A program made the position numbers and the translations under genes. From NCBI GenBank assembly GCA_041665005.1, contig JBAYJR010000008.1, positions 1,423 through 65,422 on the forward strand: DNA of 64,000 bases. Reading direction: 5' to 3'. Of this stretch, positions 28,663 through 48,388 are shown in pieces (the stretch's first letter is position 1; the number at the start of each line of letters is the position of its first letter). This DNA comes from Candidatus Buchananbacteria bacterium. Lineage in GTDB: Bacteria > Patescibacteriota > Patescibacteriia > 2-01-FULL-39-33 > JBAYJR01. The notes beneath the pieces were generated by a model. The model saw only the letters and a program-made list of their open reading frames with translations, was not told the origin of the DNA and made no database searches.

Positions 28663-28769
28663 TGGTTATTCTTCAAACTTATCAAAACAACTAATGTAAT
28701 AACCACTATTGCATTTTAAACTACAAACATAGTGCCTAATTTTATCTTCCCGCCTTCGCTCGTTTTCTG

Positions 28770-28857
28770 CGGAGAGGGCGAGATTCGAACTCGCGAGACT
28801 CTTTTGAAGCCTAACGGTTTTCAAGACCGTCCCATTCAACCACTCTGGCACCTCTCC
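28770..28857 (-). tRNA. tRNA-Ser (anticodon UGA), type II
   Basis: Hand-folded. Acceptor GGAGAGG, D-stem CCA/UGG, anticodon stem ACGGU/ACCGU, loop CUUGAAA, a long variable arm, T-arm GCGAG-UUCGAAU-CUCGC and G73. Track ORF 28666..28851 overlaps it and is spurious. Confidence 0.85.
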
Positions 28858-28863
28858 AAATAA

Positions 28864-29115: not shown

Positions 29116-29137
29116 ATTATTATCTATGAGGTTTTTC

Positions 29138-29215
29138 GGCCCGAGGCCGACCAGCCTTGGGCTGGCAAGACCGTCCCATTCAACCACCCTGGCACCTCTC
29201 CAAATAATTACTTTT
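29138..29215. repeat. GC-rich hairpin element (copy 2) plus a duplicated 5' half of tRNA-Ser(UGA) with its upstream flank
   Basis: 29166-29201 matches the 5' end of the tRNA at 28822-28857 (36 nt, one mismatch), ending inside the anticodon loop. The following aaataattactt also matches the tRNA's upstream flank. The hairpin ggcccgaggccgaccagccttgggc precedes it. Confidence 0.7.
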
Positions 29216-29317: not shown

Positions 29318-30016
29318 TTAACCCTTAGCCAAAACTAAACCAAACACTTTACCCACTCCCGCTTGTTTTAAAACTTTAGCGCATTCTTGCATAGTTGAAC
29401 CTGTCGTATAAACATCGTCAATTAACAAAATATCCCGACCAACCAGATCAACTGCCTTTACCAGAACAAAGGCCTTTGTGATATTACCAAAACGTGATCG
29501 ATGTTTTAATTGGGCTTGTGGTTTGGTATAACGTTGACGCTGTAAAACTTTTTGCACTTGTGATGGCTCAAAAAAATTAATGGCTAAATTATAGGCTTGG
29601 TTAAAGGTCCGCCATAAATAACGTTTAGGGTGCAGTGGCACCGGCACCACGATAAAATTTTTAAAACTAAAATCGTTGGCTAGTAATAACGGTTTAAACT
29701 TTTGACCTAACAAATCCGCTACTTCTTGAATAAAATTATACTTAAAACTGGCAATAATATTTTGCCAGATCGGTTGAGAATAATTGCCCAAAAACCACAA
29801 ACCATCTAAATAATTTATTGGCTTAGCCAAACACTGGTGATTAACTTTTTGCAACTGCTGGCAAGCCGGGCAATAAAATTTTAAAATTTGGGATAACAAA
29901 TTAAAACATTTGGCACACAGCCACTTCCCCTCTTGACCGCAGTTAACACAACTGGCCGGGAATAATATTTCCAGACACTCCTGCTTGATCTTAGCTAACC
30001 ATGATTTTACTGCCAT
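29318..30016 (-). CDS. comFC: ComF-family phosphoribosyltransferase (competence protein ComFC-like)
   Basis: 232 aa. N-terminal double zinc ribbon (CVNCGQ...CAKC...CPAC) and a PRTase motif ILLIDDVYTTGSTM. Confidence 0.8.
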   Translation of the reverse strand: MAVKSWLAKIKQECLEILFPASCVNCGQEGKWLCAKCFNLLSQILKFYCPACQQLQKVNHQCLAKPINYLDGLWFLGNYSQPIWQNIIASFKYNFIQEVADLLGQKFKPLLLANDFSFKNFIVVPVPLHPKRYLWRTFNQAYNLAINFFEPSQVQKVLQRQRYTKPQAQLKHRSRFGNITKAFVLVKAVDLVGRDILLIDDVYTTGSTMQECAKVLKQAGVGKVFGLVLAKG

Positions 30017-30579
30017 TTGGCTTCATCCACCAACCATTGTGAACCAACTTTTAGTAACCTAACCACAATAGCTTGATAATAAATTTTATCTGGACCATTA
30101 GCACTTGCTTGCTGACGCTGAGTATTAACCAAAACACTGGCGCTATCACTGGTGATATTTTTAACTTGACTACTTAAGGCCTTGGTAGTAACTCCGCTAT
30201 AAATTTGTGCACTAGTCTTAGCCAAAGTTTTAATTTGAGTATTCAAATAATCTTGCCAACTTTTAGTTGCCACCAACTTTAATTCTTGTAGATTACTAAA
30301 ATTATTTTGATTAGAATAACTACCAAACCGTTCCGCGAAATCACTGGCCAACCTAGTCACCGAAACAGTCGCTAATTCGGTTTCGGACATTTTTTTAGCT
30401 GGCCCTGGCGAGGCCTGATTGTTGCTATTAGTTGCTGAGTTTAAATTAGTTTGATTAGTATTAGCATAAAATTGCGGTCGGGTAATAAAATAGTAAACCA
30501 ACCACAAAACCGCTAGACCAATTAAGGCTACCACTAAAACAATTATTCCTTGCTGACGTTTAGTAAGATTTAATTCCAT
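30007..30579 (-). CDS. Membrane-anchored hypothetical protein
   Basis: 190 aa with an N-terminal TM helix and a Ser/Thr/Asn-rich periplasmic domain. It overlaps the comFC start by 10 nt. Confidence 0.4.
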   Translation of the reverse strand: MELNLTKRQQGIIVLVVALIGLAVLWLVYYFITRPQFYANTNQTNLNSATNSNNQASPGPAKKMSETELATVSVTRLASDFAERFGSYSNQNNFSNLQELKLVATKSWQDYLNTQIKTLAKTSAQIYSGVTTKALSSQVKNITSDSASVLVNTQRQQASANGPDKIYYQAIVVRLLKVGSQWLVDEAKWQ

Positions 30580-30600
30580 AAAATAATTTTAAGCTAAAAA

Positions 30601-32502
30601 TTAAAGATTTTTGGCTTCAGCCTGATTAATAGTTGCTTCGGCAAACTCTCTCTTGGCCGCTTCAATTTCTAATATTTGTCGCGGATCCGAGGTAATTAAC
30701 TGATCTTCGGTATAAGAGGCCACTACTTTAATCGCCGCGTGTTTATCACCGGCAAAAAATATTCCTTCACCCGGTGCACTTTCTAATAATAACAACTTTT
30801 CTCCCTGCGTTAGTAAAAAAGTTTTTTGCACCAAATCAATGGCCGCAGTAGATTGTCTAAGCAATAGCCGCAAAGAAGAATTAGTAATTACGGCCTGCCC
30901 CTCAGGTGATAATAAAAAATCATTAACATCCTGTGAAATAGTAGTCACCCCCAAATAGTAATGACGCGCCCGCTTAACTAAAGCATACAAAAATTTTGCA
31001 GAATCTTCATACATCATCAGCCACCAAGCCTCATCAATAATTAAAATACGTTTTTTTAATTCCGAACGAATCACATTCCAAATATAATAAATAATGGTAT
31101 AAATGGCCATGGGCCGTAATTCATCTTCTAAATCACGAATCGAAAAAACTACCAATTGACTACGCATTTCAACATTTGTTGGATGGTTTAATAAGCCAGA
31201 AAAAGTTCCTTCGGTATATTTTTTTAAACGTAAAGCCAAATCGGCTCCACCTTCCATCCCTTCTAAAATTTCTTGCAAATCCTGTAAAATTGGCATTTCC
31301 GGTTTAGTCTGCAAATCTGTTCCGGGGGTGATGTCTTTTTTGGCATAAGCTTCTAAAATCGCCCGATCCATAATTGAGTCTTCTTGGTGCGTAAATTGTC
31401 CCAACATTATTCGCAACAAACCTTTAATAGCAATGGAAGCGCTCAAAATAATATTAGCCGTTGTGCTTTCTTTTTCAACCGACAAGGGCAAATCAAACGG
31501 ATTAATTTTACTTTCCGAATTTAAGGAAACATTAATATAAGTACCGCCCACCGCCTCGCATAAATGCCGATATTCTCTTTCCGGATCAATAATGATTACA
31601 TCAGTGCCTAGCATTAGGCTACGCAAAACTTCTAGTTTAACTGCGTAAGATTTGCCCGCGCCCGAGGTAGCAAACACTACCATATTGGCATTGGGCAAAG
31701 AAAAACGATCAAATAAAATTAAACTATTATTGTGACGATTAATACCATACAAAACCCCATTATCAGAGGTCAGGTCAGCCGAAGCAAACGGAAAAAAAGA
31801 AGCGGCCGGCGAAGTATTCATATTAGCGGTAATTTGCAATTCATCATTTAACAACGGCAAAGTAGAATTAAAACCTTGTTCAGCTTGAAATAAAACTTTC
31901 TTAGAATAAACTTGGCGTGAACCAAAAATCGCTTCCACTCGATCAGTAATTTCCTCTAATTCTTCTTTACTAAAAGCATACAAGGTAACATAAATTGCCA
32001 CTTGAAAAAATCTTTCCACACCTTGAGTTAAATCATCCCGCAATTTTTCCATATCACGCAAGGCCGTTTCTCGCAACGGATCGCGAGGCGCACCTTTTTC
32101 GGCATCCGCTGATAACTGGGCCTCTAAATTACCTACTTTATTACGTAATTGTTTTAAAATAATCGCAGACTCCACTGGATAAAAATACATGGCAATATCC
32201 AAAGTAGAATCTAAGTTGATAATCGCATTAAACCAACCCATGCTAATATAACGCGGGTAAGTAATAACAAAAATTGTCCGTACAAAACGATCGTTTAGCC
32301 GTAAAAAATTAGCCGATACCTCAAATGCGGCCGGCGCAATTAAGTCCCGAATAGAAACTAAACCTTGTCGATAAATCTGTTCCTCTTCTAAGGTTACCTT
32401 GGCTTCTTCTAAGCTTTTGGGCGCTACCGCTTTAGCGCGGTCTAAAAAAGTACCGGCCTGATTATCCGCAATCTGATCTTTTATTTGTTTGGGGTCAAAC
32501 AT
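30601..32502 (-). CDS. VirB4/TrbE/CagE-family T4SS ATPase, C-terminal ATPase part
   Basis: 633 aa. Walker A FATSGAGKSYA and Walker B IIDEAWWLM (the DEAW motif typical of VirB4). Confidence 0.8.
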   Translation of the reverse strand: MFDPKQIKDQIADNQAGTFLDRAKAVAPKSLEEAKVTLEEEQIYRQGLVSIRDLIAPAAFEVSANFLRLNDRFVRTIFVITYPRYISMGWFNAIINLDSTLDIAMYFYPVESAIILKQLRNKVGNLEAQLSADAEKGAPRDPLRETALRDMEKLRDDLTQGVERFFQVAIYVTLYAFSKEELEEITDRVEAIFGSRQVYSKKVLFQAEQGFNSTLPLLNDELQITANMNTSPAASFFPFASADLTSDNGVLYGINRHNNSLILFDRFSLPNANMVVFATSGAGKSYAVKLEVLRSLMLGTDVIIIDPEREYRHLCEAVGGTYINVSLNSESKINPFDLPLSVEKESTTANIILSASIAIKGLLRIMLGQFTHQEDSIMDRAILEAYAKKDITPGTDLQTKPEMPILQDLQEILEGMEGGADLALRLKKYTEGTFSGLLNHPTNVEMRSQLVVFSIRDLEDELRPMAIYTIIYYIWNVIRSELKKRILIIDEAWWLMMYEDSAKFLYALVKRARHYYLGVTTISQDVNDFLLSPEGQAVITNSSLRLLLRQSTAAIDLVQKTFLLTQGEKLLLLESAPGEGIFFAGDKHAAIKVVASYTEDQLITSDPRQILEIEAAKREFAEATINQAEAKNL

Positions 32503-32511
32503 AAAAAATAA

Positions 32512-33216
32512 TTAGTCTACTCGCAATTCTTCGGGATTAGTCATTTTTTGTTTTTCGGCTAAATCCAAATTATAAGTATTATAAAATAATTCAATCAAAC
32601 TAACGGTGTCTAGTTGCGCCGCCCGCAAACCAATACCGGACAGCCCAGCCAAAACTTTTTCAATCCGCCGATCTAATTCGTGATAATAAGTGCGGAAACG
32701 TTGTTCTTCTAGGCGCAAAGCGGCGGTAGTAAAAAACAAAGAAGCAATCCTTTCCCAGAAACCGCGCCGTTTAAGCGCCTTAGAACTATAAGGCACGACC
32801 ACATAAAATCTTTTGGTCATAATTTGCCCCAATTTAATCAATTCCTTAATCGCTTGGCTATAATCAGCAATTTGCAATCTTAACAATTCATTGCTCTGTT
32901 GCCTTTCTTTTTTATTTAAATCAAGCAAATAGGCATCAATATTTAGTTGGCGCGACTGAATAACAATTTCCAAAGGAAAATCCAACATGTTTAAAAAACC
33001 AACATAATTGCCAATAATCGCCTGCTGTTCTTCTTCGGATTTTAAATCAAAATTAAGACTAGAAACCAACAACACGGCCCGCAAAGAGCCGTCCTTTAAA
33101 ATAACCGTATTTTCTTTAATTTCGGCAATTTCAACAAACCGTTGCGTCGTGGGCGTGGCCGCAGTGGCTTTATGAAATTTTAACGGCCGAGGGCCGGTAT
33201 TAATACTTTGCGCCAT
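32512..33216 (-). CDS. VirB4 N-terminal domain encoded as a separate ORF (split gene, or a frameshifted virB4)
   Basis: 234 aa. ...ENTVILKDGSLRAVLLVSSLNFDLKSEEEQQ... matches the conserved LKDGSL...D...EE block of the VirB4/TrbE N-domain. The stop lies 9 nt before the ATPase ORF's ATG, in a different frame. Confidence 0.55.
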   Translation of the reverse strand: MAQSINTGPRPLKFHKATAATPTTQRFVEIAEIKENTVILKDGSLRAVLLVSSLNFDLKSEEEQQAIIGNYVGFLNMLDFPLEIVIQSRQLNIDAYLLDLNKKERQQSNELLRLQIADYSQAIKELIKLGQIMTKRFYVVVPYSSKALKRRGFWERIASLFFTTAALRLEEQRFRTYYHELDRRIEKVLAGLSGIGLRAAQLDTVSLIELFYNTYNLDLAEKQKMTNPEELRVD

Positions 33217-33276
33217 AGTTATTCAATTATAGCAAATTTTACCTAATTTTTAAATTTTTACCAACCTAAAACTGAT

Positions 33277-33723
33277 TTATTTTTTAAGTTCCGAATTTTC
33301 CCCCGCATAATAGCCACCGGTATCTACAATTAAAGCCAATTCGGACAAACGAGAAACGCCAATCGCCTTTTTAAACATTGGCTGACTAGGGATTACTGGC
33401 ATTAAAGGTTGTTTTAGATAACTTTTTAGTTCCGCGGTGCTGTATTTTTTTCGCCAAATCCGTAATCGTGGTTTTTTAGAAGTTTCTACAAAATTGATTA
33501 AAAAATAATGAAAGGGTTGACCGTTGATTTTTAAAAACCCTAAAACCAAAACCAACAACCCTAAAACAATCGTCAAAAAAATAAAAAGGCCAATATCAGA
33601 AACTTTATATGCAATAAATTCTAAACCGCCGCCCACCACCAAAATAACAAACTGTCGGGTAGTAATCGGCCCAATAATTTTATCTTCTACTTCTAAAAAT
33701 TGTGGTACGGTAAATGCTTCCAT
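33277..33723 (-). CDS. VirB3/PrgI-like small membrane protein
   Basis: 148 aa. The N-terminus reads TVPQFLEVEDKIIGPITTRQFV and is followed by two TM helices. It lies immediately upstream of virB4, as PrgI/VirB3 do. Confidence 0.45.
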   Translation of the reverse strand: MEAFTVPQFLEVEDKIIGPITTRQFVILVVGGGLEFIAYKVSDIGLFIFLTIVLGLLVLVLGFLKINGQPFHYFLINFVETSKKPRLRIWRKKYSTAELKSYLKQPLMPVIPSQPMFKKAIGVSRLSELALIVDTGGYYAGENSELKK

Positions 33724-33766
33724 GTTTTTTACTAAATTATTTTACTAATCTGCTAACTCGCTTATC

Positions 33767-35098
33767 CTAATATTTTAGCTGCTTATTTAATTCCGCCAAA
33801 GCCTGAAATTCGGCTAAAGTTAAGGTCGGCTGATTGTTTTGCTGACGAAGGCTAATTGCCTCGCTTAATGCCTGACTAGCTAATAAGGCTTGCTGAATAA
33901 TTTGTAAATATAATTGATTTACCGGACTACTTTGCCAAGCCTTAATCCCTGCCACTTTTTTCGCAATCCCTTCGGTGGATAACAGTTCGATCTTACCACG
34001 AATTTTTTGGCGCGCTTGTTCCGGATCAGGGTTTAACCGCCGAAAATCAATCAAATCAAAGCCGGCTAATTCTTCCACTGGACCTACTAACTTTTTAGCA
34101 TATTTAATATCTTCAATCACCGGTTTTTGTGGCAATAAATCTGCGGACTTTTTAAAACCCGATGGCGCCTGTGGTTGGCCTGGTCTAGGATTAGCGTTAA
34201 CCGTTGCCATTCTTTTGGCCTGCATTAATTGATCGGTTTCGGCTACTTGATCGCTAGTCGCCAAAGTTTCCGAAGACTGCCGTAAACTTTCTAGGCTCCG
34301 ACGTTGACGATCAACAATAGTCAAAAGATTTTCGGCTTGTTCTTTGGTTAAACTTACCCCCCCGGCCGAAGCTTCATGCATTAAAAAGCCTCTAGTTTCT
34401 ACCCAATCACGAACACCGCGTAAATAAGTCATTAAAATATTAACCAACTTTTTTGTTAACTCCGGTGAAGTCAAGGTTAAACCGGCTAACTGAATTAACC
34501 GCTTGGCCTCTTGTTCTAAAATATTTGGTAAATTATCCCGTTGGCGAGCGCTATTCTGATTAGCTAATTTTTTTATTTCTTCCTCATCTTCCGGAAACAA
34601 ATGCCAATTAGAAACCGGCCGATCTAAATTTTCGGCGGATCTAACTATCCCCTGAGGCCGTGTAGGAAAAATTGTCGCCGGTAACTTGACTGGCTTAATT
34701 TCGGTTTTAGCTTCAACGCTAGTTGGCTGAACTATTATTTTGGATGTAATCAAAGGCGCCATTATCGGCTTAGTCGGTGTGGCCGGCGCTTTAACTTCAA
34801 TTTTAGATGCTGTTTTAATATAATTTAAATGCCCCAAAACCGGTTGAAAAATTTTATTTATTAAAATCGTTTTAATCTCTTTGGCTTGCTCAACGGTTAA
34901 GGTAAAATTGGCGGTTAAATAAGTTTCCAATTCTGCTAAAGCCACTTCCTGTTTGGCAATTTTTAAAACCAAATTAAAAGCATTGAGCTGATACTTATCT
35001 TTCAACTCTCTTAAAACCCGTTGGGCCGAAACATTAGCAATGGCTTGCCGCAAATTTGGCGCCAAACTATTAAATTTTGCCAAAACTTCTTCGGACAT
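33767..35098 (-). CDS. Hypothetical soluble protein (443 aa)
   Basis: Long ORF with no TM helices and no recognisable motif. Part of the T4SS-like operon. Confidence 0.4.
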   Translation of the reverse strand: MSEEVLAKFNSLAPNLRQAIANVSAQRVLRELKDKYQLNAFNLVLKIAKQEVALAELETYLTANFTLTVEQAKEIKTILINKIFQPVLGHLNYIKTASKIEVKAPATPTKPIMAPLITSKIIVQPTSVEAKTEIKPVKLPATIFPTRPQGIVRSAENLDRPVSNWHLFPEDEEEIKKLANQNSARQRDNLPNILEQEAKRLIQLAGLTLTSPELTKKLVNILMTYLRGVRDWVETRGFLMHEASAGGVSLTKEQAENLLTIVDRQRRSLESLRQSSETLATSDQVAETDQLMQAKRMATVNANPRPGQPQAPSGFKKSADLLPQKPVIEDIKYAKKLVGPVEELAGFDLIDFRRLNPDPEQARQKIRGKIELLSTEGIAKKVAGIKAWQSSPVNQLYLQIIQQALLASQALSEAISLRQQNNQPTLTLAEFQALAELNKQLKY

Positions 35099-35103
35099 AA
35101 TAA

Positions 35104-35598
35104 TTATTTTTTATCTTCTTCTTCCAAGGTCGCCTGCGCTAAAAAAGCCTTTTCTTCAGCCGAAATATCCGCCGGTAAATTATCTAAATTAAGGTTAGCC
35201 GAGGGTTTAGTTGAGGTTTGAACCGGTTTTACTGCGACTGGCTGATTAATTACGCTTGGCTGATTTGCTACCGCCGGTTTATTTGTTGTCTCTAAAACTG
35301 GTTCTGCTAAATATTCCTGGCGATTGGCCGTAATTTCCGGTAAAATTTCATACCAAACCTTATCATATAGCTCATCTTCAATTTCCAAGGCTGCTTCTTC
35401 CCCTGCTCCCAATTGTTCCACCAAAAAATCCACTACATCTTCCAGGGCTAGTTCCCCGCCTACCACCAACCAATATAAAGCCGACAGTTGTTTGGGTTCA
35501 GCTTTAAAAATTTCATACTTAGCCGGCAAAGAATTCAAAACTTCCTGCACCGCCGGACTTTGATAATAAGTTACTAATTTTTGTTCTTGATCTGCCAT
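35104..35598 (-). CDS. Hypothetical acidic protein (164 aa)
   Basis: ORF tightly packed between the VirB6-like gene and the 443-aa gene. Glu/Asp-rich. Confidence 0.4.
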   Translation of the reverse strand: MADQEQKLVTYYQSPAVQEVLNSLPAKYEIFKAEPKQLSALYWLVVGGELALEDVVDFLVEQLGAGEEAALEIEDELYDKVWYEILPEITANRQEYLAEPVLETTNKPAVANQPSVINQPVAVKPVQTSTKPSANLNLDNLPADISAEEKAFLAQATLEEEDKK

Positions 35599-35602
35599 AA
35601 AA

Positions 35603-38600
35603 TTACTTATAATATTTAATCAAACCCGAGAGTTCGTTCACGATGTCATCAATTTCTTCCTGACTACCAAACATCTTTTTCTGTTCAACTCCGGCCATAA
35701 AATTCTTCAATTCACTGCTAGCTCGGTCAAGTTTTTGTTTTTGACCAACATCTCCACTCTTTTTACTTACTTTATTTAAAGCTTTAATTCTGTTCTGTAG
35801 ACTATGCACAGTTTTATTTAAAACTTTGACATCTTTATCAAAATTTTTCATATTTAATGGCAAGCTAGACAAGCGACGAATACCCTCGGAAAAGGAAATT
35901 ATACTACGATCCAATTTAGGCAGAAAAGCTTGATTAATTTTGTCCTGCAGAATCGGATGCACCATTTGCCCCGCTACAGCCGCCGCCGTTTTAATCAACT
36001 TGGAATCACGATCTGTAACAGTTTCTCTTCTTTTTTGCTCTTCTTTGCCGGAATAATATTCATCAATCTTTTTTCTAAGGTCACCAAACAACATATAGGC
36101 GGCCCGATCATATTTTAAAACACTCGCCCCCGTATTGGCAATTTTCCTCACACCGCTCTTTTTATTTTCTTCTTCATAACGAATTCGTTCTAATGGCCGA
36201 TTAACCACGGTAAAACTATCGTCTATCGCCTTCTGATTATTTTTAGCTTCTTTAATGGCTTTTTCTTTAGTGTCTTTATTGTCTGAAAGAGTATCCCCTA
36301 AAGCGCTCGCTTGTTTATCAGTGGCCTTGCTAATATTTTCCAAATCCTTATAAACAACACTCTTCTCTTTTAAATAATCAGCAAAAGAATATTTTTCCTT
36401 TCGATCCGGCCTTAAAATATCTGTTTTAGCATCACCCTTAGAACTAGCCACCGACTCCATACTTACTCTTAATTCCTCAGCTAAATTTTTAATTTTTTCG
36501 TTTATCCCATAGGCCTGAATTTCCTCGCCTGGTTTTAATTTATCATAATTAAACTTAGCGGCCTGTTCTTTTAATACTTGCAATTCTTGCAAACGATCAT
36601 CCCAATTAGCCACTTTTAACTCTTTAACAAACATTTCTTCATTTTTTACTACCTCCGCATCCGCCGCAACATAATATTTTTCTTTATTGGCTCTAGTTTT
36701 TAAATCAGTGGACTCAATTTCTTCTCTACGCTTAACAACTTCATCACTCAACTTATTACCCGCTAAATCCTCAGCAGTTGAAATAAATTTAATACCAGTA
36801 TTTGGATCAAATCCCTCGATGTATTTTCTATCGGGGCTATCTAGCAAACCCTTAACATCACCTTTTGGAAGATTCATTGCTTCATAATCTATATTACTAC
36901 CACTATAGGCAACGGTAGCCATGTTAATTACCTTGTTCAAATCATCAATGGTATTTTTATTATTCAAATCAAAGCCTTCCTTGGCGAATAACTCCGGTTT
37001 AGCCAGCATATTTTTGACTGCCTCCATAATTTGCCGGCGACCAGCCGCACCTGCAAAACCCAAATTACCACCAGCTTTAATATAATCCGCAATACCCATA
37101 ATCTGTTGCGAAACATTAGCCCCCTTCATGCCCAAACTACTATTAGTAATCACAATATTAGACAAATCTTTTTCGGACATATTAGCCACTGTATTACGAA
37201 CAGAGTTTGCTCCAACTTCAGTGCCTACCAATTGTCCGTCCTCATTTTTGTAACCAGATACTCCCACTAAACCAGCATTTTTCCTGGTCGCCAATCTTTC
37301 CATATCATAAGCAAAGGTTTTAAAATCCGCTTCTGGAATATTAAATTGCTTTTGATATTTTTGTAAGCTTTCTCCTAATTCAGAGTCCCCTGCTTCGGCT
37401 AAAGAGGTAATTAAAGCCCGAGCCGTGCCAACATCTTTATTCTTTTTCAAAATTTCATGAGCGGCATTGGTGTTGGTAAAATCAAAACCGGATTTTTGTA
37501 AGCTATCGCGAGCCGCCATCTGTTCCTCTTGTCTAAATTTCTCAATGGCATCCGCTTTACCACCAAACTTTTGATTCATCTGAGCTTGAATTAACCGATT
37601 ATCGCGTTCAGTTTTCTTTTCATTAAAGCCCAACACCCCGCCAATTCGCGAATTAGCAAAACGATTATAAGAAGCCCGCGCCGCCGCCGGCACCCGAGTT
37701 TTTTCACCAAAATTTTTGGCAATTTTGGTACCTTTCTTTTGAATTTCCCCCATAGCTTTATTAGCTAATTGAGAACCAACTGTGCCAGCCTTACCAGCAG
37801 CAATTAAGGCGGCAATTAATAAACCAATAGTTAAAATTGAGACAAATATTTGCTCGGTTGAGGTGTTCAAAAAATCCCCCACACCTTCTCCTGTGCCCGA
37901 AACTATACCACCTACCACCTTAAACTTACTACTAATCTCGTCTTTTAAACTACCGGCCGTCACTGATCCCGTACTATCGGTTCCTGATGGACCAATCATA
38001 GCATTCAAAAAATTCATAGAGATAAACAAAAACAGGGCGATGGCTGGGCCAACCACTAAATATTTTGTGAAAGTTGACCACCACTGCCCTGAATAAGTTT
38101 GCAACGCCGGAAAAGCCGAGGCAAAATAAGCAAAAGGTGATAAAACAATTAAAAACCAAAAAGCGATTATTCTGGCTAAAAGTATAATAAAGAATATTAA
38201 GATAACTACACAAGCAATAACCGAGAATATGGCGGCAGTGGCGGCCTTAATAAAATCCTCAACACCATTGCCTAAAGCCACATTAGCTATGGCCATATAT
38301 CCTACATTAAAAAAAGCAAGAACGCCCACCTTTATTGCAATCGTATTGGTTAGTTGTTGTGCGTTACCAAGCAAAGTTAACATCACTACTTGTGAAGCAT
38401 CAATTAATAACCCCGTGAACATCTTAGAAAAATTTATCAAGATAGCCATTAACAAAACTTTGCCTAGCAACCTTTTGTAATTATAAGTTTCTACCCTTAA
38501 AATGGTGGCCACCGCAATCACTAATAAAAACACAATAAAAAAATTATTACACAAATCTCTAATAAAAACCCAACTTTGAACCACACCATCGGCATTAATA

Positions 38601-38896
38601 AAATTACTATATTCAGCCACAATGCGTAATAAAAATAAGAAAAAAGTCATCAATGTAGCAAACAGAACTCCTGTAGCTGCTAATATCTCCGTATAAGGAA
38701 ATAATACAGCCCCAAGTGCAACCTTTGTTATTCCAGCGGCAATCTGGCTACCTGTACCGGCTTCCTGTGTAGCTGGTGTTGTCCCAGCAGTCTGTGCCGA
38801 CGCTCCGGCCATTGGCAAAACTAGACAACTTAAAACCACCGCTCCCGCCACAAACGTTAAAACTTTCTTTTGATTATTTTTTAACCAGTGCTTCAT
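35603..38896 (-). CDS. VirB6/TrbL-like polytopic membrane protein with a large hydrophilic C-terminal domain
   Basis: 1097 aa. Signal peptide, then 6-8 TM helices in the first about 380 aa with conserved Trp residues, followed by about 700 aa that are charged and coiled-coil-rich. Confidence 0.55.
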   Translation of the reverse strand: MKHWLKNNQKKVLTFVAGAVVLSCLVLPMAGASAQTAGTTPATQEAGTGSQIAAGITKVALGAVLFPYTEILAATGVLFATLMTFFLFLLRIVAEYSNFINADGVVQSWVFIRDLCNNFFIVFLLVIAVATILRVETYNYKRLLGKVLLMAILINFSKMFTGLLIDASQVVMLTLLGNAQQLTNTIAIKVGVLAFFNVGYMAIANVALGNGVEDFIKAATAAIFSVIACVVILIFFIILLARIIAFWFLIVLSPFAYFASAFPALQTYSGQWWSTFTKYLVVGPAIALFLFISMNFLNAMIGPSGTDSTGSVTAGSLKDEISSKFKVVGGIVSGTGEGVGDFLNTSTEQIFVSILTIGLLIAALIAAGKAGTVGSQLANKAMGEIQKKGTKIAKNFGEKTRVPAAARASYNRFANSRIGGVLGFNEKKTERDNRLIQAQMNQKFGGKADAIEKFRQEEQMAARDSLQKSGFDFTNTNAAHEILKKNKDVGTARALITSLAEAGDSELGESLQKYQKQFNIPEADFKTFAYDMERLATRKNAGLVGVSGYKNEDGQLVGTEVGANSVRNTVANMSEKDLSNIVITNSSLGMKGANVSQQIMGIADYIKAGGNLGFAGAAGRRQIMEAVKNMLAKPELFAKEGFDLNNKNTIDDLNKVINMATVAYSGSNIDYEAMNLPKGDVKGLLDSPDRKYIEGFDPNTGIKFISTAEDLAGNKLSDEVVKRREEIESTDLKTRANKEKYYVAADAEVVKNEEMFVKELKVANWDDRLQELQVLKEQAAKFNYDKLKPGEEIQAYGINEKIKNLAEELRVSMESVASSKGDAKTDILRPDRKEKYSFADYLKEKSVVYKDLENISKATDKQASALGDTLSDNKDTKEKAIKEAKNNQKAIDDSFTVVNRPLERIRYEEENKKSGVRKIANTGASVLKYDRAAYMLFGDLRKKIDEYYSGKEEQKRRETVTDRDSKLIKTAAAVAGQMVHPILQDKINQAFLPKLDRSIISFSEGIRRLSSLPLNMKNFDKDVKVLNKTVHSLQNRIKALNKVSKKSGDVGQKQKLDRASSELKNFMAGVEQKKMFGSQEEIDDIVNELSGLIKYYK

Positions 38897-38906
38897 AAAA
38901 ATTTAA

Positions 38907-41900: not shown

Positions 41901-44900
41901 GCAACGATTCCAAATATCCACTTGGCAGTTAGTGCCGGCCGTGCCATTACCATTGTTATCGGGATTAACCGGACTGACGTCGGAATCATAACCATTTTTT
42001 AAATAATCACTACTATGACTGATGGCGTAGCTATCGCGATTATTAAACAGCACGCAACCTAGGCCCGGATTAACCACACCGTTACAAGACTTAGCATCTA
42101 AATTATCCGCCAGAGTGTAGTAAGGATTATTTTCTACCAACCTTATTTCGGCTATCGCAAAACTGCTTTGTGTTGCTTTAATACCCAAAGTTAGTGCTGT
42201 TGCCTGACCAGTATAAACTCGACCACTAAAACTAACAAAATCACTCGGGTTAACCTGATCATTACCTACTACTAAATTGTAAGAATTATAAGCCGGAACC
42301 GCAACTAAAGAACCATCGGGAGAAGATAATTGATTAGCAACCGAACTGGTCACAAAAGTTTCAAATCTACCGCCTTCCCCAGCCAAAACCAATTTTACTT
42401 TAGCGGACAAAGTATATAAAGTATTAGCTTTAACTTTTAAACCACTGCCAGTAATCACATAAGTATTGCCAGAATTTAAAGCTAATTTACCAGCGCTATC
42501 ACTATAAGAAATTTCCGCCCCCGCTGCGGTTTTCCAACCACTAATATAATCTTGCCCCGCGGCCGTATATTTTTGACTAAAATCAGCGTTAAATACTAAA
42601 TTGGAACCATTAATTCCCGCTGGCTCAATTAATTCAGTGCAAGAATTTTGACTGGCCGGACATAACCCCGCGTAGCCGCCGGGTGAGGCAATAGTCGTTA
42701 AATCCACTGGTTGAGTCACTGGCGATTCAGAATAACCAACCGTATAAAGTGGCGAGGCGGAATAATTTGGACAGGGAATTAACACTTCACTACCCGCCGA
42801 ATTTTTACTGCGCACATACCAAGCCGGAGTAGTTAAACCGGCCTTAGTGATATATTCACAAGCCCGACCATTCACCGGGCCAGTGGTGGTGGCGGTATTT
42901 AACGGATTGCGGAAAAAGTAAGTATTATCATTGGCGGTAAATTTATCGCAACGGAAATAAGGATCTGAACAAAATACTTGCGTAGGACTATTCAAATCTA
43001 AAATTTTATAAGTGGTGCTATAAGTATTGACAACTGGGGCCGTCCAATCGGTTTGGTAATCTTTTTGCCCCACCGCCTGGCAACCCACCGCTTCGGCCGT
43101 GCAATATTTTTTACTGTCATTAACCCAATAAGAGATTGTATCCGCCGGCGCATGATAAATATAGGCCGAATCATTCCCGTTAGACAAATTTAAAGTTTGC
43201 GCTTCGGGCGAATTGGTGTTGGCGGTATCAATCAAGGCTTCACAACCCGCGGCATCAGCCGGACATAATTCACTAAACTGCCGGAAATACCAATTAACCT
43301 TATCAACATCTTGATATTGTTGACACCCCGCCATATAACCGGTAACGCAACGGGAAGGCGTACCTTCTGTTCCCCCGCAAGCGGCGCCCACCTGATCATC
43401 CAAAATATTATCGCAAGCCACCGGCACGTTCCAAGAATTTTTTATTAAATAAGTATTGCTACGAATCAACTTGATTAAAATATTATCTAAATACCAACCA
43501 GCGCTGGTAATTTTTAAAGCGGTGGTTAAATCACCAGTCACCGTCGCTGGCAAGGTGAAATTATTTTTATAAACTCCCCACTGCGTAGTTGATAAAGTAC
43601 TGCCAGTACCACTGATAGGATAAATTTGATAATCAATACCGGATAATTGCAAAGTCGGCTTAACATTGGCGTTGTAGGCTTTGGCAATAAAACTGATTTC
43701 ATATTCTTGACCGGATTGTAATACAAAATTACCCGAAGTAACATTACTAGCAATTATTTTTAAACTATGTCCACCAGCATAACTGGCTTCGGAGCTAACA
43801 TTAAAGCTACCAGTTGCTCCCGACCAAACCGGATTATTTTCAAAAGTATCTAAAAATATTTGTTTAGTATTATTGCCACTATTGCCTAAATATTGACGGC
43901 AACCGGCTAAATTAGCAGCACACTGATTACCTTCATTAGGCACCGCATAATACAAACACTCACTGCCATTCCACCAACCGGCCACACCTACCCAAGTACC
44001 GGCGGCATTTACACCACTACAATCTTGCTCGGCCGTGTTACCATTTTGCGGGTTTTGATTGTAATTATTGGTAGTGCGGCGATAAGGATGACAGTTTTCT
44101 GAAGAAGTAACCGTTAATGATAATTTACGTTTGTAATTAGCTCCACGCGTATCAAAAAATTCTCGGCAATCGCTGTCGGTAGCCGGGTCACAACTGTCCG
44201 TTGAATAAGTGGCTATTTCGTTACAAGCCGTCACGCTGGGTGAGCTGTAAGTTAAATGTGTGCACGGCGGATAACTGGTAATACCACTAGCCTTATCAGC
44301 CACGGCGGTATCGCTTTTTCTTAATTGATAAGTTTTTAATTGATAACCAGTAGTATCCGAACCTTCCCAAGTATAATAAGTACCCTCTGTAGCGGCGTTA
44401 GGTTGTTGACATAATTTTAACTTAGAATAATATTCTTTGCCTTCGCCGCCCCTAGCTTGTTCATCAACATTAGTAAATTCTTCACAACCAGCCGCTTCGG
44501 CCGTACAAGTTTTACCGTTATTAATTAAATATTGATTGCTTGGCGCGCTAAAAGTTGTCCCTTGTTCCACATAGTTAGCATAGCCCACACAACTTGCCGG
44601 GCATTGATCAGTACTATGCGTAATAGCCGAAACATCTGGATCACCATTAACCGGCTTATATAATTGACAGCCAATATCTTGCTCGGTGCAGGCGGTGGCA
44701 TAATTTACGCATTGCGCATTATCGTTGCTCTTTTTTAAACTGCCATCAGTATTATAATCATCACAATAATAATAAGCAGGCGGTTTGGTTAAATATAATA
44801 AATTTTTAGTGCCATAATCGGTAACCGCGCTAACCGCTGTTTCGTTACTATTTACTTCTTCCAAAAATATTTGATCTAAATAAATTTTGGCCGTGGCGCT

Positions 44901-47495
44901 GCCGTTGCAATTACTAAAATTAAAATTAATTGTACCTGGATCCGCCCAAGAATTTATTTTAATAGTTTCAGTAGTAAATTTTTGCCAATCAGTAGTAATA
45001 TTTAAAGTCGCTTCGTTATTATATTCTTTAAAAGTCTGGTGGGTTTTATTTTGACCTACTTCATTGTTATATAAAGGAGAAGCACTATCGCCAAAAGATA
45101 AATTTGCATACCAATGACTAGTAGCGTCTTCCGCCTTACCCCAAAAAGACAAACGATAATAATGATTAGGTTTTAAATAAGGCTTAACCAGTTGACTGGT
45201 TAATTGCTGACAACTAGCATCGCCGGTAGGTACCGAACGATTAACCAACGCTAAAACTTTACTGCCAAAAATACCAGTATCTCCTTGGGGTATATCAGCT
45301 GTATTGATTACATCGGCAAAAACCGAACCATTAAAAATTTCCCAAGCCTTGGGGTTATTAATATTTACCGTTGAGCCTTCGGTTTGTGCCCAAACGACCG
45401 AATTAACCCCCTCTTCAAAACTATTGTTAGCAATTAAATTAGTGCCTAAACTAGGTTTTAAACGAATAAATTTAGAACAACCCGCTTGGGCACTGGTACA
45501 AGCTTGCGCATCATTATCTAAATAATAAATTGCATTATAACTTTGACCACCAGACACGGAAATATTGGCTTGCCACAGGCCATTAGCTTGCCACACGCTA
45601 TAAGGTCGGCAACCGGCTACGCCATTAGTACCATAACCGTCACCAACCGCACAAGACCAAGACACAGAATTTTTTAAATAAGAAACTGTTTGGCCATTTG
45701 AATTTTGAAAAGTTTGACAACTGTTATAGACCGGGCTACAACTACTATTTTTACCAAAATCATAAGTCCGACGTTCTTCGGTGCAATAACCATAAAATTT
45801 ACAAGAGCCATCTTCATTTTCCACAATGCAACTCTGCTCATCCGCGCAATAATCTTCGCGCGATAAAGATAAAGAAGAGGGCGTGTCGCCGTTATCATCA
45901 TAATCGCCATCGGCGTTAGCATCCGTGCCACTGTTGACCGAGCTACTAGAAACTTTTGGCCCCGGACCTTCTTTACGGCAATAGGCTTCTGGCGCTTTTA
46001 ACACCCAATTGGGGTCCACCAAGCCTTTGAGTGGCAATAAATCCGCATTACCATAATATTTACTGGCCGGATCATTAACTCCTACTACTTGTTCTAAACT
46101 AAAATTTTGGCCGGCAAAATCCCGAATGTATTGGGCCGCTACTTCCCAGCCCACCGGTAAAATTCGATATTTACGTAAAATTAAAAAACTACGATAAGGA
46201 TAACCATTTTTATAATCTGGCTCTTTGCCGGCGGTGCCCTGCGTGGCTTCAAAACCAAAGGCCTTTTTACCGTCCAGCCAACCTTCAGCCATGGCCTGCT
46301 TAACCGTCAAACCCTTTTCAATACCAAACCGGAATTTTTCATCAATGACGCAATCAGTTGGCCCGGGATTAGAAGAATCCGGACAAGCCGTTAATTTATT
46401 CAAAATGTCATAAGGCCCGCCAACAATCGGCGAGACATCACGCAGACTAGCAAAGCGAGTTTTGGCGGCTGCTTGACCACTGCTAGCAGAACCAGATTCG
46501 TAATTATAAACTGTAGACGAAGAATCGCTGTCGTCATTATTCCAATATAAACCGTTAATTAAATTTTGTAAGACCTGACCAATCAAAGTATTGGTAAAAA
46601 CCGCAATCGCATCGGCCACCGGTTCCCCCACCCAACTTTTTTCTCGCACCGTAGCATCAGTAATCATCCCCTTAAAAAAGAATTCCGCCACCGCTGCCCC
46701 AGGAGTTTTAATTTTGTCATCTTTAGTTTTAATATCCTTAAAACCTAAATTTTGTATTTTTTCTAAAATTGCCAACTGTTCAATCTTATCCTGAGTTTTA
46801 AACATTACTTCTTTTAAATCCAAATACAAACTCAGGTCATTTTCTGATTTTAAAACCGTGGCTAATTTTGGTAAATATTGTTCGTCTTTAATCGCATCAT
46901 CCCAATTACTAATCATTTTTGATATTTTGCAACGACTGGAATAAGTAGTCGGCTTGGTCAAACCTAAGCCCACCATAATATTTATTTGAGTTTTTAAACT
47001 AGGGGCGCAAATATCCAAACTAAACAAGGTGGTGCCATTTTGTTTAATGGTAAATTTACCGGCCGTAAATTCACCGCCGCCGCTATTCCAGGCCACGCTT
47101 AATTTGTCTAAAAAAGTTCCCGCTAAATTATCCGCCGCATCCGTTAAATAACTAGTCCAACCCTTGGTCACAAATAATGGCTCTTGACCTTCCCCACCCG
47201 AAGCAATCCAAGTGGCGGTGTCGTAAGCAATTTGATTTAAAAAATTACCCAAAGCAGTCTTAAAAGCAATCTTAGCCGCTTTGGTTAAACTGTCTTTGAG
47301 AGTTTGTTTCGTGGCGGCGGTAGTTCTTGGTATATCCGAAACAACTTTAATTGGAACACCAGGCACCACGTTAGTCGCAGATTCAGGAACTAGCCCTGCC
47401 CCTTGCGCCAAAACTAACAACGGTGAAACTAACAAAACTAGACTAAAAAAGATTAAGGCTGATTTTTGAAAAATATTTTTAGTTTTTACCGGCAT
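38907..47495 (-). CDS. Giant secreted Cys-rich surface protein (2862 aa) with several CBM4_9-like beta-sandwich modules and a C-terminal PKD-like domain. Putative adhesin.
   Basis: N-terminal signal/anchor (ALIFFSLVLLVSPLLVLA). Repeated N.SFE...W...G...Y.LSFW.KA CBM-like blocks. C-terminal VNWGDGTE...VLYHTY PKD signature. Very high Cys, Trp, Tyr, Asn, Ser, Thr and Gly content. Confidence 0.75.
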   Translation of the reverse strand: MPVKTKNIFQKSALIFFSLVLLVSPLLVLAQGAGLVPESATNVVPGVPIKVVSDIPRTTAATKQTLKDSLTKAAKIAFKTALGNFLNQIAYDTATWIASGGEGQEPLFVTKGWTSYLTDAADNLAGTFLDKLSVAWNSGGGEFTAGKFTIKQNGTTLFSLDICAPSLKTQINIMVGLGLTKPTTYSSRCKISKMISNWDDAIKDEQYLPKLATVLKSENDLSLYLDLKEVMFKTQDKIEQLAILEKIQNLGFKDIKTKDDKIKTPGAAVAEFFFKGMITDATVREKSWVGEPVADAIAVFTNTLIGQVLQNLINGLYWNNDDSDSSSTVYNYESGSASSGQAAAKTRFASLRDVSPIVGGPYDILNKLTACPDSSNPGPTDCVIDEKFRFGIEKGLTVKQAMAEGWLDGKKAFGFEATQGTAGKEPDYKNGYPYRSFLILRKYRILPVGWEVAAQYIRDFAGQNFSLEQVVGVNDPASKYYGNADLLPLKGLVDPNWVLKAPEAYCRKEGPGPKVSSSSVNSGTDANADGDYDDNGDTPSSLSLSREDYCADEQSCIVENEDGSCKFYGYCTEERRTYDFGKNSSCSPVYNSCQTFQNSNGQTVSYLKNSVSWSCAVGDGYGTNGVAGCRPYSVWQANGLWQANISVSGGQSYNAIYYLDNDAQACTSAQAGCSKFIRLKPSLGTNLIANNSFEEGVNSVVWAQTEGSTVNINNPKAWEIFNGSVFADVINTADIPQGDTGIFGSKVLALVNRSVPTGDASCQQLTSQLVKPYLKPNHYYRLSFWGKAEDATSHWYANLSFGDSASPLYNNEVGQNKTHQTFKEYNNEATLNITTDWQKFTTETIKINSWADPGTINFNFSNCNGSATAKIYLDQIFLEEVNSNETAVSAVTDYGTKNLLYLTKPPAYYYCDDYNTDGSLKKSNDNAQCVNYATACTEQDIGCQLYKPVNGDPDVSAITHSTDQCPASCVGYANYVEQGTTFSAPSNQYLINNGKTCTAEAAGCEEFTNVDEQARGGEGKEYYSKLKLCQQPNAATEGTYYTWEGSDTTGYQLKTYQLRKSDTAVADKASGITSYPPCTHLTYSSPSVTACNEIATYSTDSCDPATDSDCREFFDTRGANYKRKLSLTVTSSENCHPYRRTTNNYNQNPQNGNTAEQDCSGVNAAGTWVGVAGWWNGSECLYYAVPNEGNQCAANLAGCRQYLGNSGNNTKQIFLDTFENNPVWSGATGSFNVSSEASYAGGHSLKIIASNVTSGNFVLQSGQEYEISFIAKAYNANVKPTLQLSGIDYQIYPISGTGSTLSTTQWGVYKNNFTLPATVTGDLTTALKITSAGWYLDNILIKLIRSNTYLIKNSWNVPVACDNILDDQVGAACGGTEGTPSRCVTGYMAGCQQYQDVDKVNWYFRQFSELCPADAAGCEALIDTANTNSPEAQTLNLSNGNDSAYIYHAPADTISYWVNDSKKYCTAEAVGCQAVGQKDYQTDWTAPVVNTYSTTYKILDLNSPTQVFCSDPYFRCDKFTANDNTYFFRNPLNTATTTGPVNGRACEYITKAGLTTPAWYVRSKNSAGSEVLIPCPNYSASPLYTVGYSESPVTQPVDLTTIASPGGYAGLCPASQNSCTELIEPAGINGSNLVFNADFSQKYTAAGQDYISGWKTAAGAEISYSDSAGKLALNSGNTYVITGSGLKVKANTLYTLSAKVKLVLAGEGGRFETFVTSSVANQLSSPDGSLVAVPAYNSYNLVVGNDQVNPSDFVSFSGRVYTGQATALTLGIKATQSSFAIAEIRLVENNPYYTLADNLDAKSCNGVVNPGLGCVLFNNRDSYAISHSSDYLKNGYDSDVSPVNPDNNGNGTAGTNCQVDIWNRCDSNTILKVTPDRVCNTWLYCKTSIASNDGTSNIGTANRNKDVCLDLGLCKAVDEKGNCSQVLNQEVAELNYNPTQPGLVANLSGYTKVGYQSKFTGDFPFAQMTQVGESTEVPNGDFTDLQDDGQPRGWLPLSSDTCSNKASQICYDSWVCDDHIAPKEYKQNWCNASTLGSWNTKYFKAITNPSDLITEGITSPNNKPVLKVNYGDYEKGEAVIVESELIDVFPDSEYVVSGYINTLNLNPATAQAVVQVWELKNNGTKVYLNQDATTNPRISPSSEQVWLLDQTFNDGATNTFGMNSRGAYSVYYLMARKDWTPFTVRIKTSANTTQLRLELSNFNPAVSTGVVAEGSGSSYFANLRLKPALKINGKSILATDCRLYPEDSALSCDYTNTATNVTYRGQKGYCLQYDSKNTKICLQWWPIDLPKGELTGSYGGYSGRSPLYYCAAGTLLQKRFEGIIATASWNEGGDNPNNCSGVASKYGTTAWYQAYDNSDATKYYYLSVDGYEPYFGYASDVQKISTDSDVCLAFVYNNQDEVYTDNNGQKYYGYSVISKDATSGSLPFRSGQHVLCDGDANHVYNVDLTSATCAAGTEVVLTGKILFYRSQLLTVAGSGECVRALKCTEASGYNCCQTNSKTISDPPVTAASFCTDIIQTVTPNGQNKAWLGRVSSGSGYKTAVQNFSQNDDYAPFASILAPSPDYNPTDWSLLPVDIAGDPSSTYSGKAHAGEFYSCDNEYGGCGNVGFDRAGNWSINGYNVDPSNFVEGSYATIDSATISLKRLFAQAYAEWSWNWTDKKYEISNKKLWSVPDEGNLCADTHQRNLTRPPYDATDPDADYCALAPRVTKIKVNGVQTSDVVSLGVGTQTAGLEFNITIDANQWPLTAYKVNWGDGTETAVSGVSLRDSSSSSTPVVLYHTYDYYSMKKNVSLGTGVCSGTTCSAPIAIQVKDNWGWCNGNLNLGSAVLAPFGTSAWGYYQNACSTDTNAWQKGPTVKVSQ

Positions 47496-47509
47496 GTTAA
47501 TAAAATAAA

Positions 47510-48328
47510 TTATTTGACCGTATTAGTATTCGTTTGTTGCTCCGTTAATTTCTGTATAAATACCTGTTTTAACTGCTCGTCCGTATATTTACTTAATAAA
47601 TCCGCACTCGCTCCTTTTTCAATCAACAAGGCCCTAATTTGCGAACCCGTTAAGCTTTGTAGTTGGCTAACACTATTGATATTCAAACCGCTATTGGTAT
47701 TAGCGACTGGAACAGTACTGGTATTATTATCTACTTCCCCTAAATTGCTAGGCACTTGCCCCGTGGCAATAGCGCTGGCCATTTGCTGATAAATAGCCAA
47801 AATTTCTGTATCACTTAAAGCATCAACCTGATCTTGCGACACCCCATTTTGTACTAAAAACTGACGAATAGCTTGCGGGTCACTGGCCGAAGGCAAACTG
47901 ACGTTAGACTGACTAGCTGAACCGGTAGCCGCCGTTGCCTCGCCGTTACTAACTTGTGGAATACAGGTTTGACCTTCAGGACAATTTGGATTATGACCGG
48001 ACAAAATCTCTTGTTTATCATTAAAGCCGTCGGAATCCGAATCAGCTAAATAGGGGCTAGTACTATAAACCCTTAATTCTTCATAATCAGTCAAACCATC
48101 GTTATCGGTGTCCTGCTTTTTTAATTGTTCATCAGAAATTGCCGCCACTTGATTTAAATTTTCGGTGGCAGAATTTTTATTAACCGTAGAGCCAACACTG
48201 CTGGCCGTTAAGTTAGCCTTGGTTTGCCAAAAACCAAACACCAAAGTAAAAACACCAAGCACCAAAATGCTATAGGTGATTCTTTTTTCCATCTTTGGGT
48301 TAGCGGGCATAATTAGCCAAATCGTCAA
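47510..48328 (-). CDS. Membrane-anchored protein with TSP3-type (DxDxDG) calcium-binding repeats
   Basis: 272 aa. TM anchor, then DTDNDGLTDYEE and DSDSDGFNDKQE motifs. It is the first gene of the operon. Confidence 0.55.
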   Translation of the reverse strand: MTIWLIMPANPKMEKRITYSILVLGVFTLVFGFWQTKANLTASSVGSTVNKNSATENLNQVAAISDEQLKKQDTDNDGLTDYEELRVYSTSPYLADSDSDGFNDKQEILSGHNPNCPEGQTCIPQVSNGEATAATGSASQSNVSLPSASDPQAIRQFLVQNGVSQDQVDALSDTEILAIYQQMASAIATGQVPSNLGEVDNNTSTVPVANTNSGLNINSVSQLQSLTGSQIRALLIEKGASADLLSKYTDEQLKQVFIQKLTEQQTNTNTVK

Positions 48329-48388
48329 ACTTTAAGACTTTATCCACTATTTTAATTATACTACTTTTTTAATTTTTTTTCCAAGTCG

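Follow-up and report, generated by a model that had tools for sequence, protein, structure and literature searches.

Patescibacteria account for much of bacterial diversity, and little is understood of how they fasten to their hosts and feed on them. A type IV secretion system (T4SS) is essential in the one genetically tractable lineage, where neither the host-recognition parts nor the substrate of the system are known. In the Saccharibacterium Southlakia epibionticum epibiotic growth requires a chromosomal T4SS (SEML1_0006-0019) that has pilins but neither a relaxase nor a coupling protein (Wang et al. 2023, PMC10633639). A survey of the phylum found a monophyletic VirB4 clade related to MPF-FATA, with TrsD, PrgI, VirB6 and VirB2-like pilins encoded near virB4, ksgA nearby and relaxases nearly absent (Quinonero-Coronel et al. 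2025, PMC12102498). In the same survey VirB8 homologs were found almost only in the class ABY1, whose loci frequently carried comF, recG and radA; many Patescibacteria had distant copies of a type IV coupling protein (T4CP), and no PrgB-like adhesins were detected. Here we analyse a T4SS locus in a 64,000-nucleotide stretch of DNA (the window) from a metagenome-assembled genome (MAG) of Candidatus Buchananbacteria. This lineage we take to belong to the GTDB class ABY1, of which, to our knowledge, no member has been cultured. The locus is probably a chromosomal, non-conjugative Patescibacteria T4SS, in which a giant secreted protein encoded next to the translocon genes serves as an adhesin for host contact.

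The core of such a T4SS and its reading as something other than a conjugation machine are already published, and the window matches the published description point by point. Like other T4SSs of the phylum, the locus is chromosomal, encodes VirB4 together with a separate TrsD, PrgI/VirB3, a probable VirB6 and VirB2-like pilins, has no relaxase or nearby T4CP and lies near ksgA. Like the ABY1 loci of the survey (PMC12102498) it also holds comF, recG, radA and a VirB8 homolog. Unlike the published systems, its operon is headed by a 2,862-amino-acid (aa) protein with CBM-like modules and a TSP3 protein, and its two pilins bear long Cys-rich extensions. Text searches of PMC12102498 and PMC10633639 gave no mention of a giant or large protein near virB4, nor did the searchable literature, subscription-only papers being outside the search, mention the giant family next to a Patescibacteria T4SS. 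The work extends a published system and does not describe a new kind of system; new are the assignment of VirB8, the extension of the locus to a block of pilin, DsbA and RadA genes, and the recognition of a giant lectin-like family, together with a TSP3 protein, at the head of the operon.

All ten open reading frames (ORFs) that the earlier note had listed were present on the minus strand between 29318 and 48328, including the 10-nt overlap at comFC (Table 1). The spacings were 14 nt between TSP3 and giant gene, 10 nt to virB6, 4 nt to h164, 5 nt to h443, 43 nt to prgI, 60 nt to trsD, 9 nt to virB4 and 21 nt to h190, i.e. a range of 4-60 nt where the earlier note had given 3-45 nt. Chance is far from sufficient to explain the arrangement: 80 independent MAG loci showed the same gene order. 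Co-transcription of the ten-gene block is plausible from its layout. A promoter-like site precedes the TSP3 gene, but read-through is also possible from ksgA, which has the same orientation and comes before this gene. Terminator-like hairpins occurred at chance frequency (26 vs 21 ± 5), none of them in an intergenic gap, so the terminator scan says nothing on the ends of the operon.

Table 1. Features of the T4SS locus in the window; the ten operon genes are given in their order from position 48328 down, followed by the promoter-like site and the genes of the pilin block with recG.
Feature	Coordinates	Strand	Basis or remarks
TSP3 calcium-binding-type protein with N-terminal anchor or signal	47510..48328	-	PF18884 TSP3_bac, 30.8 bits vs cutoff 25
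Giant secreted Cys-rich protein, 2,862 aa	38907..47495	-	Conserved N-terminal domain; CBM4/9-like modules; C-terminal 'WGDG' beta-domain
Extended VirB6/TrbL-like polytopic membrane protein, 1,097 aa	35603..38896	-	Sub-cutoff TrbL match, transmembrane (TM) segments, conserved position
h164, acidic soluble protein, 164 aa	35104..35598	-	No family, no TM segment
h443, soluble acidic protein, 443 aa	33767..35098	-	Motifs from family alignment
PrgI-family VirB3-type protein, 148 aa	33277..33723	-	PF12666, 2e-9, 38.3 bits vs cutoff 27
TrsD / VirB4 N-terminal-domain protein, 234 aa	32512..33216	-	NCBIfam matches to the region absent from VirB4
VirB4 ATPase, CD1110/monoderm type, without N-terminal domain, 633 aa	30601..32502	-	NF045971, P-loop_TraG, AAA_10
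h190, VirB8-like bitopic protein, 190 aa, N-terminal TM helix and NTF2-like domain	30007..30579	-	Predicted fold
ComFC, gene overlapping the virB8-like gene by 10 nt	29318..30016	-	TIGR00201 comF, 3e-28; double zinc ribbon and phosphoribosyltransferase domain
Promoter-like TTGGAA-18-TATAAT, upstream of the TSP3 gene	48355..48384	-	Consensus scan, 10/12 matches; weak
Membrane-anchored beta-propeller-like protein, 414 aa	17984..19228	+	TM segment aa 14-32; repeated WSPxG motifs
DsbA-like thiol-disulfide oxidoreductase, membrane anchored	19234..19989	+	Thioredoxin_4, 2e-27; DSBA, 2.7e-11
VirB2-like pilin 1, Cys-rich C-terminal extension (12 Cys)	19995..20993	+	PF18895, 24.8 bits, below cutoff of 26.6
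VirB2-like pilin 2, Cys-rich C-terminal extension (20 Cys)	21456..22394	+	PF18895, 28.1 bits, above cutoff of 26.6
RadA (DNA repair/recombination)	22408..23772	+	AAA_25, ChlI, Lon_C and zinc-ribbon domains
RecG	24530-26605	-	RecG domains; convergent with RadA

A monoderm-type translocon consisting of VirB4 with a separate TrsD, VirB3/PrgI, a probable VirB6/TrbL and a VirB8-like protein is encoded, as shown by homology or predicted fold. VirB4 scored 361.4 bits with the NCBIfam model of the CD1110 family (cutoff 325) over profile positions 169-730 of 752, and matched P-loop_TraG with 7.7e-27 (94 bits) and AAA_10 with 4e-10 (40 bits). The N-terminal part that this protein is without was recognised in its 234-aa neighbour, which matched TrsD with 3.5e-7, VirB4_plasma at positions 93-235 with 4.9e-11 and CD1110 at positions 3-121. 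The scores for TrsD and VirB4_plasma were below the equivalog cutoffs, yet the matches are specific to the N-terminal region. Orthologs of the TrsD protein carry PF26593 (TraC-like), and TrsD as well as PrgI was present in 79 of the 80 loci. Thus the split VirB4 of the earlier note was borne out.

The VirB6-like protein matched TrbL (PF04610) with 9e-4 and 19.5 bits, which is below the cutoff of 25.9. Fifteen of 42 orthologs had a TrbL match at E ≤ 0.01, the best being 5e-7, and no other family came up repeatedly. About eight to nine TM or hydrophobic segments lie in aa 1-370, followed by a hydrophilic C-terminal region of about 700 aa, and the position in the operon is conserved among related loci. 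A VirB6 profile found no match among PDB sequences. On the basis of the family matches, topology and position we accept the protein as a probable extended VirB6 with a hydrophilic tail. PF12666 being above its cutoff for PrgI, the VirB3-like call of the earlier note stands, and the TrbL matches of the orthologs support its VirB6-like call.

The 190-aa protein before ComFC had been recorded simply as a membrane protein. Its predicted fold is VirB8-like and matches PrgL, TraM, TraH and TcpC. By sequence alone, a profile of 66 sequences against PDB gave nothing but noise from the TM region. Hence the VirB8 component is recognisable from the predicted fold only.

The soluble proteins h164 and h443 are without a known domain. 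For h164 there was no significant Pfam or NCBIfam match. h443, which lies between VirB6 and PrgI in 75 of 80 loci, has 37 homologs, none of them with a Pfam domain, and both families are restricted to Patescibacteria. Alignment of the h443 family revealed an acidic motif F-x-P/S-E-D-E-E-E-I, a helical GGLG module and a conserved C-terminal domain of about 110 aa (KLVGPVEEL...DFRRL...AW..S...LY), joined by low-complexity Pro-rich linkers of highly variable length. h443 may be a cytoplasmic accessory or substrate-recruiting factor of the T4SS. The weak resemblance of h164 to the N-terminal module of h443 was not sufficient to establish paralogy (hhalign probability 5.6%).

The translocon is related to the Gram-positive conjugative T4SSs of the MPF-FATA class, such as the prgQ operon of pCF10, the Clostridioides difficile conjugative transposon with VirB4 CD1110 and pGO1 with TrsD. 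The window resembles them in reaching the CD1110 cutoff, in possessing PrgI and TrsD and, as far as the predicted model goes, in the VirB8-like fold. Unlike them, it lacks a relaxase, a T4CP and an oriT context and has VirB2-like pilins, which are missing from Gram-positive systems (PMC12102498).

The sequence of the giant protein is found unchanged in GenBank, in a MAG of Candidatus Buchananbacteria, where its gene lies on a contig of 71,476 bp. It has a single N-terminal hydrophobic segment, 84 cysteines and two to four CBM4/9-like jelly-roll modules linked by Cys-rich connectors. The full-length protein gave no Pfam match. When searched as pieces of 500 aa, it scored 25.8 bits with CBM_4_9 (PF02018) at about aa 1214-1319, the cutoff being 25.9, and 15 bits at about aa 1631-1703, whereas 15 of 19 orthologs matched CBM_4_9, the best with 4e-15. 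Hidden Markov models derived from the family showed that the modules 685-883 and 1205-1344 are paralogous, with reciprocal similarity; only trace similarity to them was seen in the modules 1629-1795 and 1972-2231. The earlier note had described a CBM/PKD surface protein. The CBM part of this description is borderline for the window copy and clear for most orthologs. PKD was rejected in every test: no match was obtained with the protein, its pieces, the 19 orthologs or 17 isolated C-terminal domains at E ≤ 1. A profile search of PDB matched only a designed Ig-like protein (E 0.24), and the 'WGDG' motif is a mere resemblance to PKD.

The giant belongs to a family of at least 669 homologs of 2,300-3,900 aa with about 30% identity. 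It is conserved along almost its full length, most cysteines included, the N-terminal 575 aa being the most conserved part. Searches with the N-terminal domain yielded 1,236 clusters at 50% identity, and most of the best 150 listed were 2,300-3,800 aa long. AlphaFold2 with 31 orthologs gave a poor model of these 575 aa (mean confidence, pLDDT, 52), in which only residues of about 350-470 were confident. Foldseek with this model against PDB returned nothing at E < 1, and phmmer with the first 500 aa found no match among PDB sequences.

Predatory Omnitrophota, which are likewise small and host-dependent, also encode very large secreted multi-domain proteins next to conserved genes for secretion or pili (preprint by West-Roberts et al. 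2023, 10.1101/2023.11.21.568195). The Omnitrophota are another phylum, their proteins are much larger and the neighbouring system resembles T2SS/T4P (type II secretion and type IV pili) and not a VirB4-based T4SS.

The TSP3 protein, with TSP3_bac above its cutoff, fits the place at the operon head which the earlier note had assigned to a putative calcium-binding protein. It has a hydrophobic segment at aa 17-35. The gene probably starts further downstream than the listed TTG; in-frame ATGs lie at about 48310 and 48292. A gene of 225-329 aa was found directly upstream of the giant gene in six of six fully fetched loci, and in five of them it encoded TSP3_bac.

Whether the giant gene is linked to the T4SS genes was examined from both sides. 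From the side of VirB4, 39 loci contained the start of virB6 and some upstream sequence. In 28 of these an ORF upstream of virB6 ran off the fetched sequence, most often remaining open for more than 1,000 aa, and 23 of the 28 were situated within 250 nt of virB6; tblastn detected homology to the giant upstream of virB6 in 27 loci. From the other side, five giant homologs were chosen for their long contigs, and all five showed the order KsgA-TSP3(-like)-giant-VirB6-...-PrgI-TrsD-VirB4. The order KsgA-TSP3-giant-VirB6 is kept even at an identity between giants of only about 30%. Judged from these sequences, the giant lectin-like family and the TSP3 protein head the operon in most of the related loci sampled.

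The T4SS locus is larger than the earlier note described, because a block on the plus strand at 17984-23772 holds two VirB2-like pilins, a DsbA-like protein and RadA, together with a small unknown protein. The pilins are encoded about 8 kb from the translocon genes. The block was syntenic with the T4SS in at least 23 loci. In these 23 two pilin paralogs were neighbours of RadA and RecG, and in 7 of them they followed directly downstream of virB4 and virB8 on the same strand. The head of the block is a 414-aa protein whose synteny with DsbA and the pilins was seen in 25 loci; it gave only weak Pfam matches to beta-propellers, and its WSPxG repeats are suggestive of a TolB-like propeller. The DsbA-like protein was syntenic with the pilins in 11 loci.

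Both pilins are three times as long as usual, and the DsbA-like gene lies directly upstream of them. Pilin 1 has a signal sequence and two TM helices. It contains a lysozyme-like motif (ICRIESSGG...SYGLFQIN), which as a sign of a VirB1-like peptidoglycan hydrolase was not significant (E 0.28 vs PDB sequences, 0.16 vs Pfam), so that a lysozyme or SLT domain is not established for the window protein. A true SLT domain is fused to the pilin only in the ortholog of locus L029 (19036-20148, minus strand; 1.7e-10 to Slt70), which shares 46% identity with pilin 1 over the pilin domain. It would be unusual for a pilin to bear a muralytic domain. The same 71-kb contig encodes a second membrane-anchored DsbA-like protein (L084 15639-16388), in what is a very small genome. 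Two DsbA-like proteins fit a cell surface rich in disulfide-bonded proteins, of which the giant with its 84 cysteines would be one.

The reading of the locus as a T4SS for host contact and not for conjugation, which the earlier note had preferred, agrees with the literature (PMC10633639, PMC12102498, PMC12857230); for the giant we infer the role of an adhesin. The TSP3 and giant proteins would be exported by the Sec pathway via their N-terminal signal or anchor, undergo oxidative folding, probably catalysed by the DsbA encoded nearby, and be displayed on the cell surface. The assistance by DsbA is proposed because of the many, mostly conserved cysteines of the giant. The CBM4/9-type jelly-roll modules, going by their family resemblance, may bind glycans of the host envelope and the TSP3 protein may stabilise or anchor the assembly, so that together they would hold the host surface against the pilus or channel of the T4SS.

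Surface-protein genes (PrgA/PrgB/PrgC) precede the channel genes in the enterococcal operon of pCF10, and a like succession of genes for predicted surface proteins and channel parts is seen in the window. By analogy the giant may have a role like that of PrgA/PrgB/PrgC without being homologous to them; it has neither detectable homology to PrgB nor an LPXTG-type architecture. With about 1,200 clusters and a place at the head of the T4SS operon in most sampled loci, the giant lectin-like family is a candidate for the host-binding part of the T4SS in ABY1. The binding specificity of its jelly-roll modules could help to predict hosts.

Several observations weigh against this reading. At least five ABY1-type loci (L039, L052, L054, L058 and L063, with 2-4.6 kb upstream) have a shorter complete ORF before virB6, and in the Saccharibacteria locus L075 KsgA abuts VirB6 without a giant gene. 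Hence the giant is not universal, and its tie to virB6, which the earlier note had singled out, holds in most related loci sampled and fails in these. Plain housekeeping genes belong to the same conserved synteny block, so adjacency by itself says little about a shared function. The CBM_4_9 match of the window protein lies 0.1 bit under the Pfam threshold, and the poor N-terminal model without a fold match leaves the giant without a physical link to the T4SS. Co-transcription is based on spacing and one weak promoter match. In Southlakia deletion of comEC abolished competence and left viability unaffected, while the T4SS was essential independently of it (PMC12857230). This indicates that DNA uptake is not the only role of the T4SS there. 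We know of no experiment on any member of ABY1.

With respect to what is transported, we favor the import of nucleic acid over other options, at somewhat less than even confidence. In this specific version of the host-contact reading a machine of the ComB/Ced type would pass host DNA or RNA to ComFC, RadA and RecG, and the giant would only provide contact. Import is favored because comFC is coupled to the virB8-like gene, because RadA and RecG are conserved neighbours, and because genes for export-type DNA processing are missing. The overlap of 10 nt indicates that comFC is translationally coupled to the virB8-like gene, and its start overlapped, or was less than 60 nt from, the virB8-like stop in 39 of 50 loci. 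The neighbourhood of RadA and RecG is in line with the linkage reported for ABY1 (PMC12102498), and the absence of a relaxase and T4CP on the contig fits a system without export-type DNA processing. Regardless of the substrate, the locus gives a conserved genetic link of the T4SS to DNA-processing genes. The ComB system of Helicobacter pylori and the crenarchaeal Ced system are T4SSs without relaxase or coupling protein that feed DNA to recombination functions, as the window locus may also do. Unlike the window locus, ComB is a diderm system with VirB7/9/10, and the similarity of VirB4 to CedB, though detectable (1.7e-10), is weak with 40 bits against a cutoff of 700. According to a preprint of 2026, host RNA is the food of one cultivated member of the phylum (10.64898/2026.06.21.733656). 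On the other hand, ComFC normally partners with ComEC and type IV pili, and a cluster for the latter is present in the same window; competence of Southlakia depends on ComEC, as described above, and recG, radA and ksgA are possibly neighbours through conserved synteny alone.

A more far-reaching proposal is that the giant and TSP3 proteins are dedicated extracellular parts of the T4SS, forming a new host-recognition organelle, unrelated to PrgA/PrgB/PrgC but analogous to them in function, in which muralytic or Cys-rich-tipped pilins breach the host envelope and host nucleic acid is imported to ComFC, RadA and RecG. We regard this as doubtful.

Unlikely, in our judgement, is that the giant and TSP3 proteins are no T4SS parts at all and form a module of general use, be it as a surface layer, as an adhesin or for harvesting glycans, with only the conserved chromosomal neighbourhood in common with the T4SS genes. 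Unrelated housekeeping genes such as those for LeuRS, FemAB, MFS and KsgA are conserved in the same place, several ABY1-type loci have no giant ORF before virB6, the same T4SS core does without a giant in Saccharibacteria, and no structural or sequence link of the giant to any T4SS part was found. A mere neighbour would not be expected to share the strand at gaps of 10-14 nt with no terminator-like site in between, or to remain adjacent down to about 30% identity in samples taken from either side, VirB4 or giant.

Less probable still is a giant that acts as a structural stalk or a conduit spanning the cell wall or S-layer in place of outer channel parts, or that is itself a secreted substrate or effector of the T4SS. 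Its conservation over nearly the full length with nearly invariant cysteines would be unusual for a fast-evolving adhesin, and monoderm T4SSs lack VirB7/9/10 and have poorly known extracellular parts (PMC12102498). Yet CBM4/9 modules are ligand-binding domains, the N-terminal Sec-type signal speaks against export through the T4SS itself, and no oligomerisation or channel features were identified.

The genomic surroundings bear on mobility. Upstream of the operon lie genes for KsgA, MFS, Sua5, a receiver protein, FemAB, LeuRS and UvrA, downstream tRNA genes, LysE and RecG. Falkowbacteria are among the MAGs that share the order LeuRS-FemAB-MFS-KsgA upstream and ComFC-tRNAs-RecG downstream. The closest VirB4 genes (65-76% identity, 73 MAG loci in the same chromosomal context) are from Buchananbacteria, Falkowbacteria, Uhrbacteria, Komeilibacteria and Magasanikbacteria. 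The GC content of 0.36-0.42 is uniform across the window and the skew is monotonic. Pfam scans of the window ORFs and precomputed matches for the rest of the contig, about 7.5 kb with genes for Mrr, a DsbA-like protein and pyruvate:ferredoxin oxidoreductase, revealed no relaxase, no VirD4/TcpA-type T4CP and no integrase domain, VirB4 being the only T4SS ATPase. A T4CP may still be encoded elsewhere in the genome, like the distant copies of other Patescibacteria. An integrative conjugative element, ordinary or decayed, to which VirB4 of a conjugative-transposon ATPase family (CD1110) and the PrgI and TrsD typical of Gram-positive conjugation could point, was accordingly rejected as highly improbable in view of the relaxase, T4CP and integrase missing from the contig, the uniform composition and the housekeeping flanks kept in the same order across many genera, in agreement with the earlier note, which had seen no VirD4 or relaxase and had argued against a classical conjugative element.

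The type IV pilus cluster is located at 5308-12710 on the minus strand and encodes a prepilin peptidase, a 743-aa Wzy_C/TPR protein, an N-methyl pilin, a receiver protein, a T2SSE ATPase, a 359-aa unknown protein and PilM. With this cluster and the T4SS the window has both surface-filament systems known to matter for the epibiotic growth of Saccharibacteria.

Downstream of comFC three tRNA-Ser genes (28128-29187, minus strand) have the anticodons GCT, ACT and TGA, of which ACT is unusual. They are interleaved with two small GIY-YIG ORFs (28227-28469 and 28864-29187), and GIY-YIG homologs were present at this position in 14 related loci. Finally, LeuRS (53861-57379, minus strand) has 1,172 aa and an inserted alpha/beta-hydrolase domain (Ser_hydrolase PF06821, 1e-13, aa 611-794). 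The ortholog in locus L086 (1-1386) has 1,002 aa and a NUDIX domain, and the proteins of four other loci, of 803-815 aa, have no insert.

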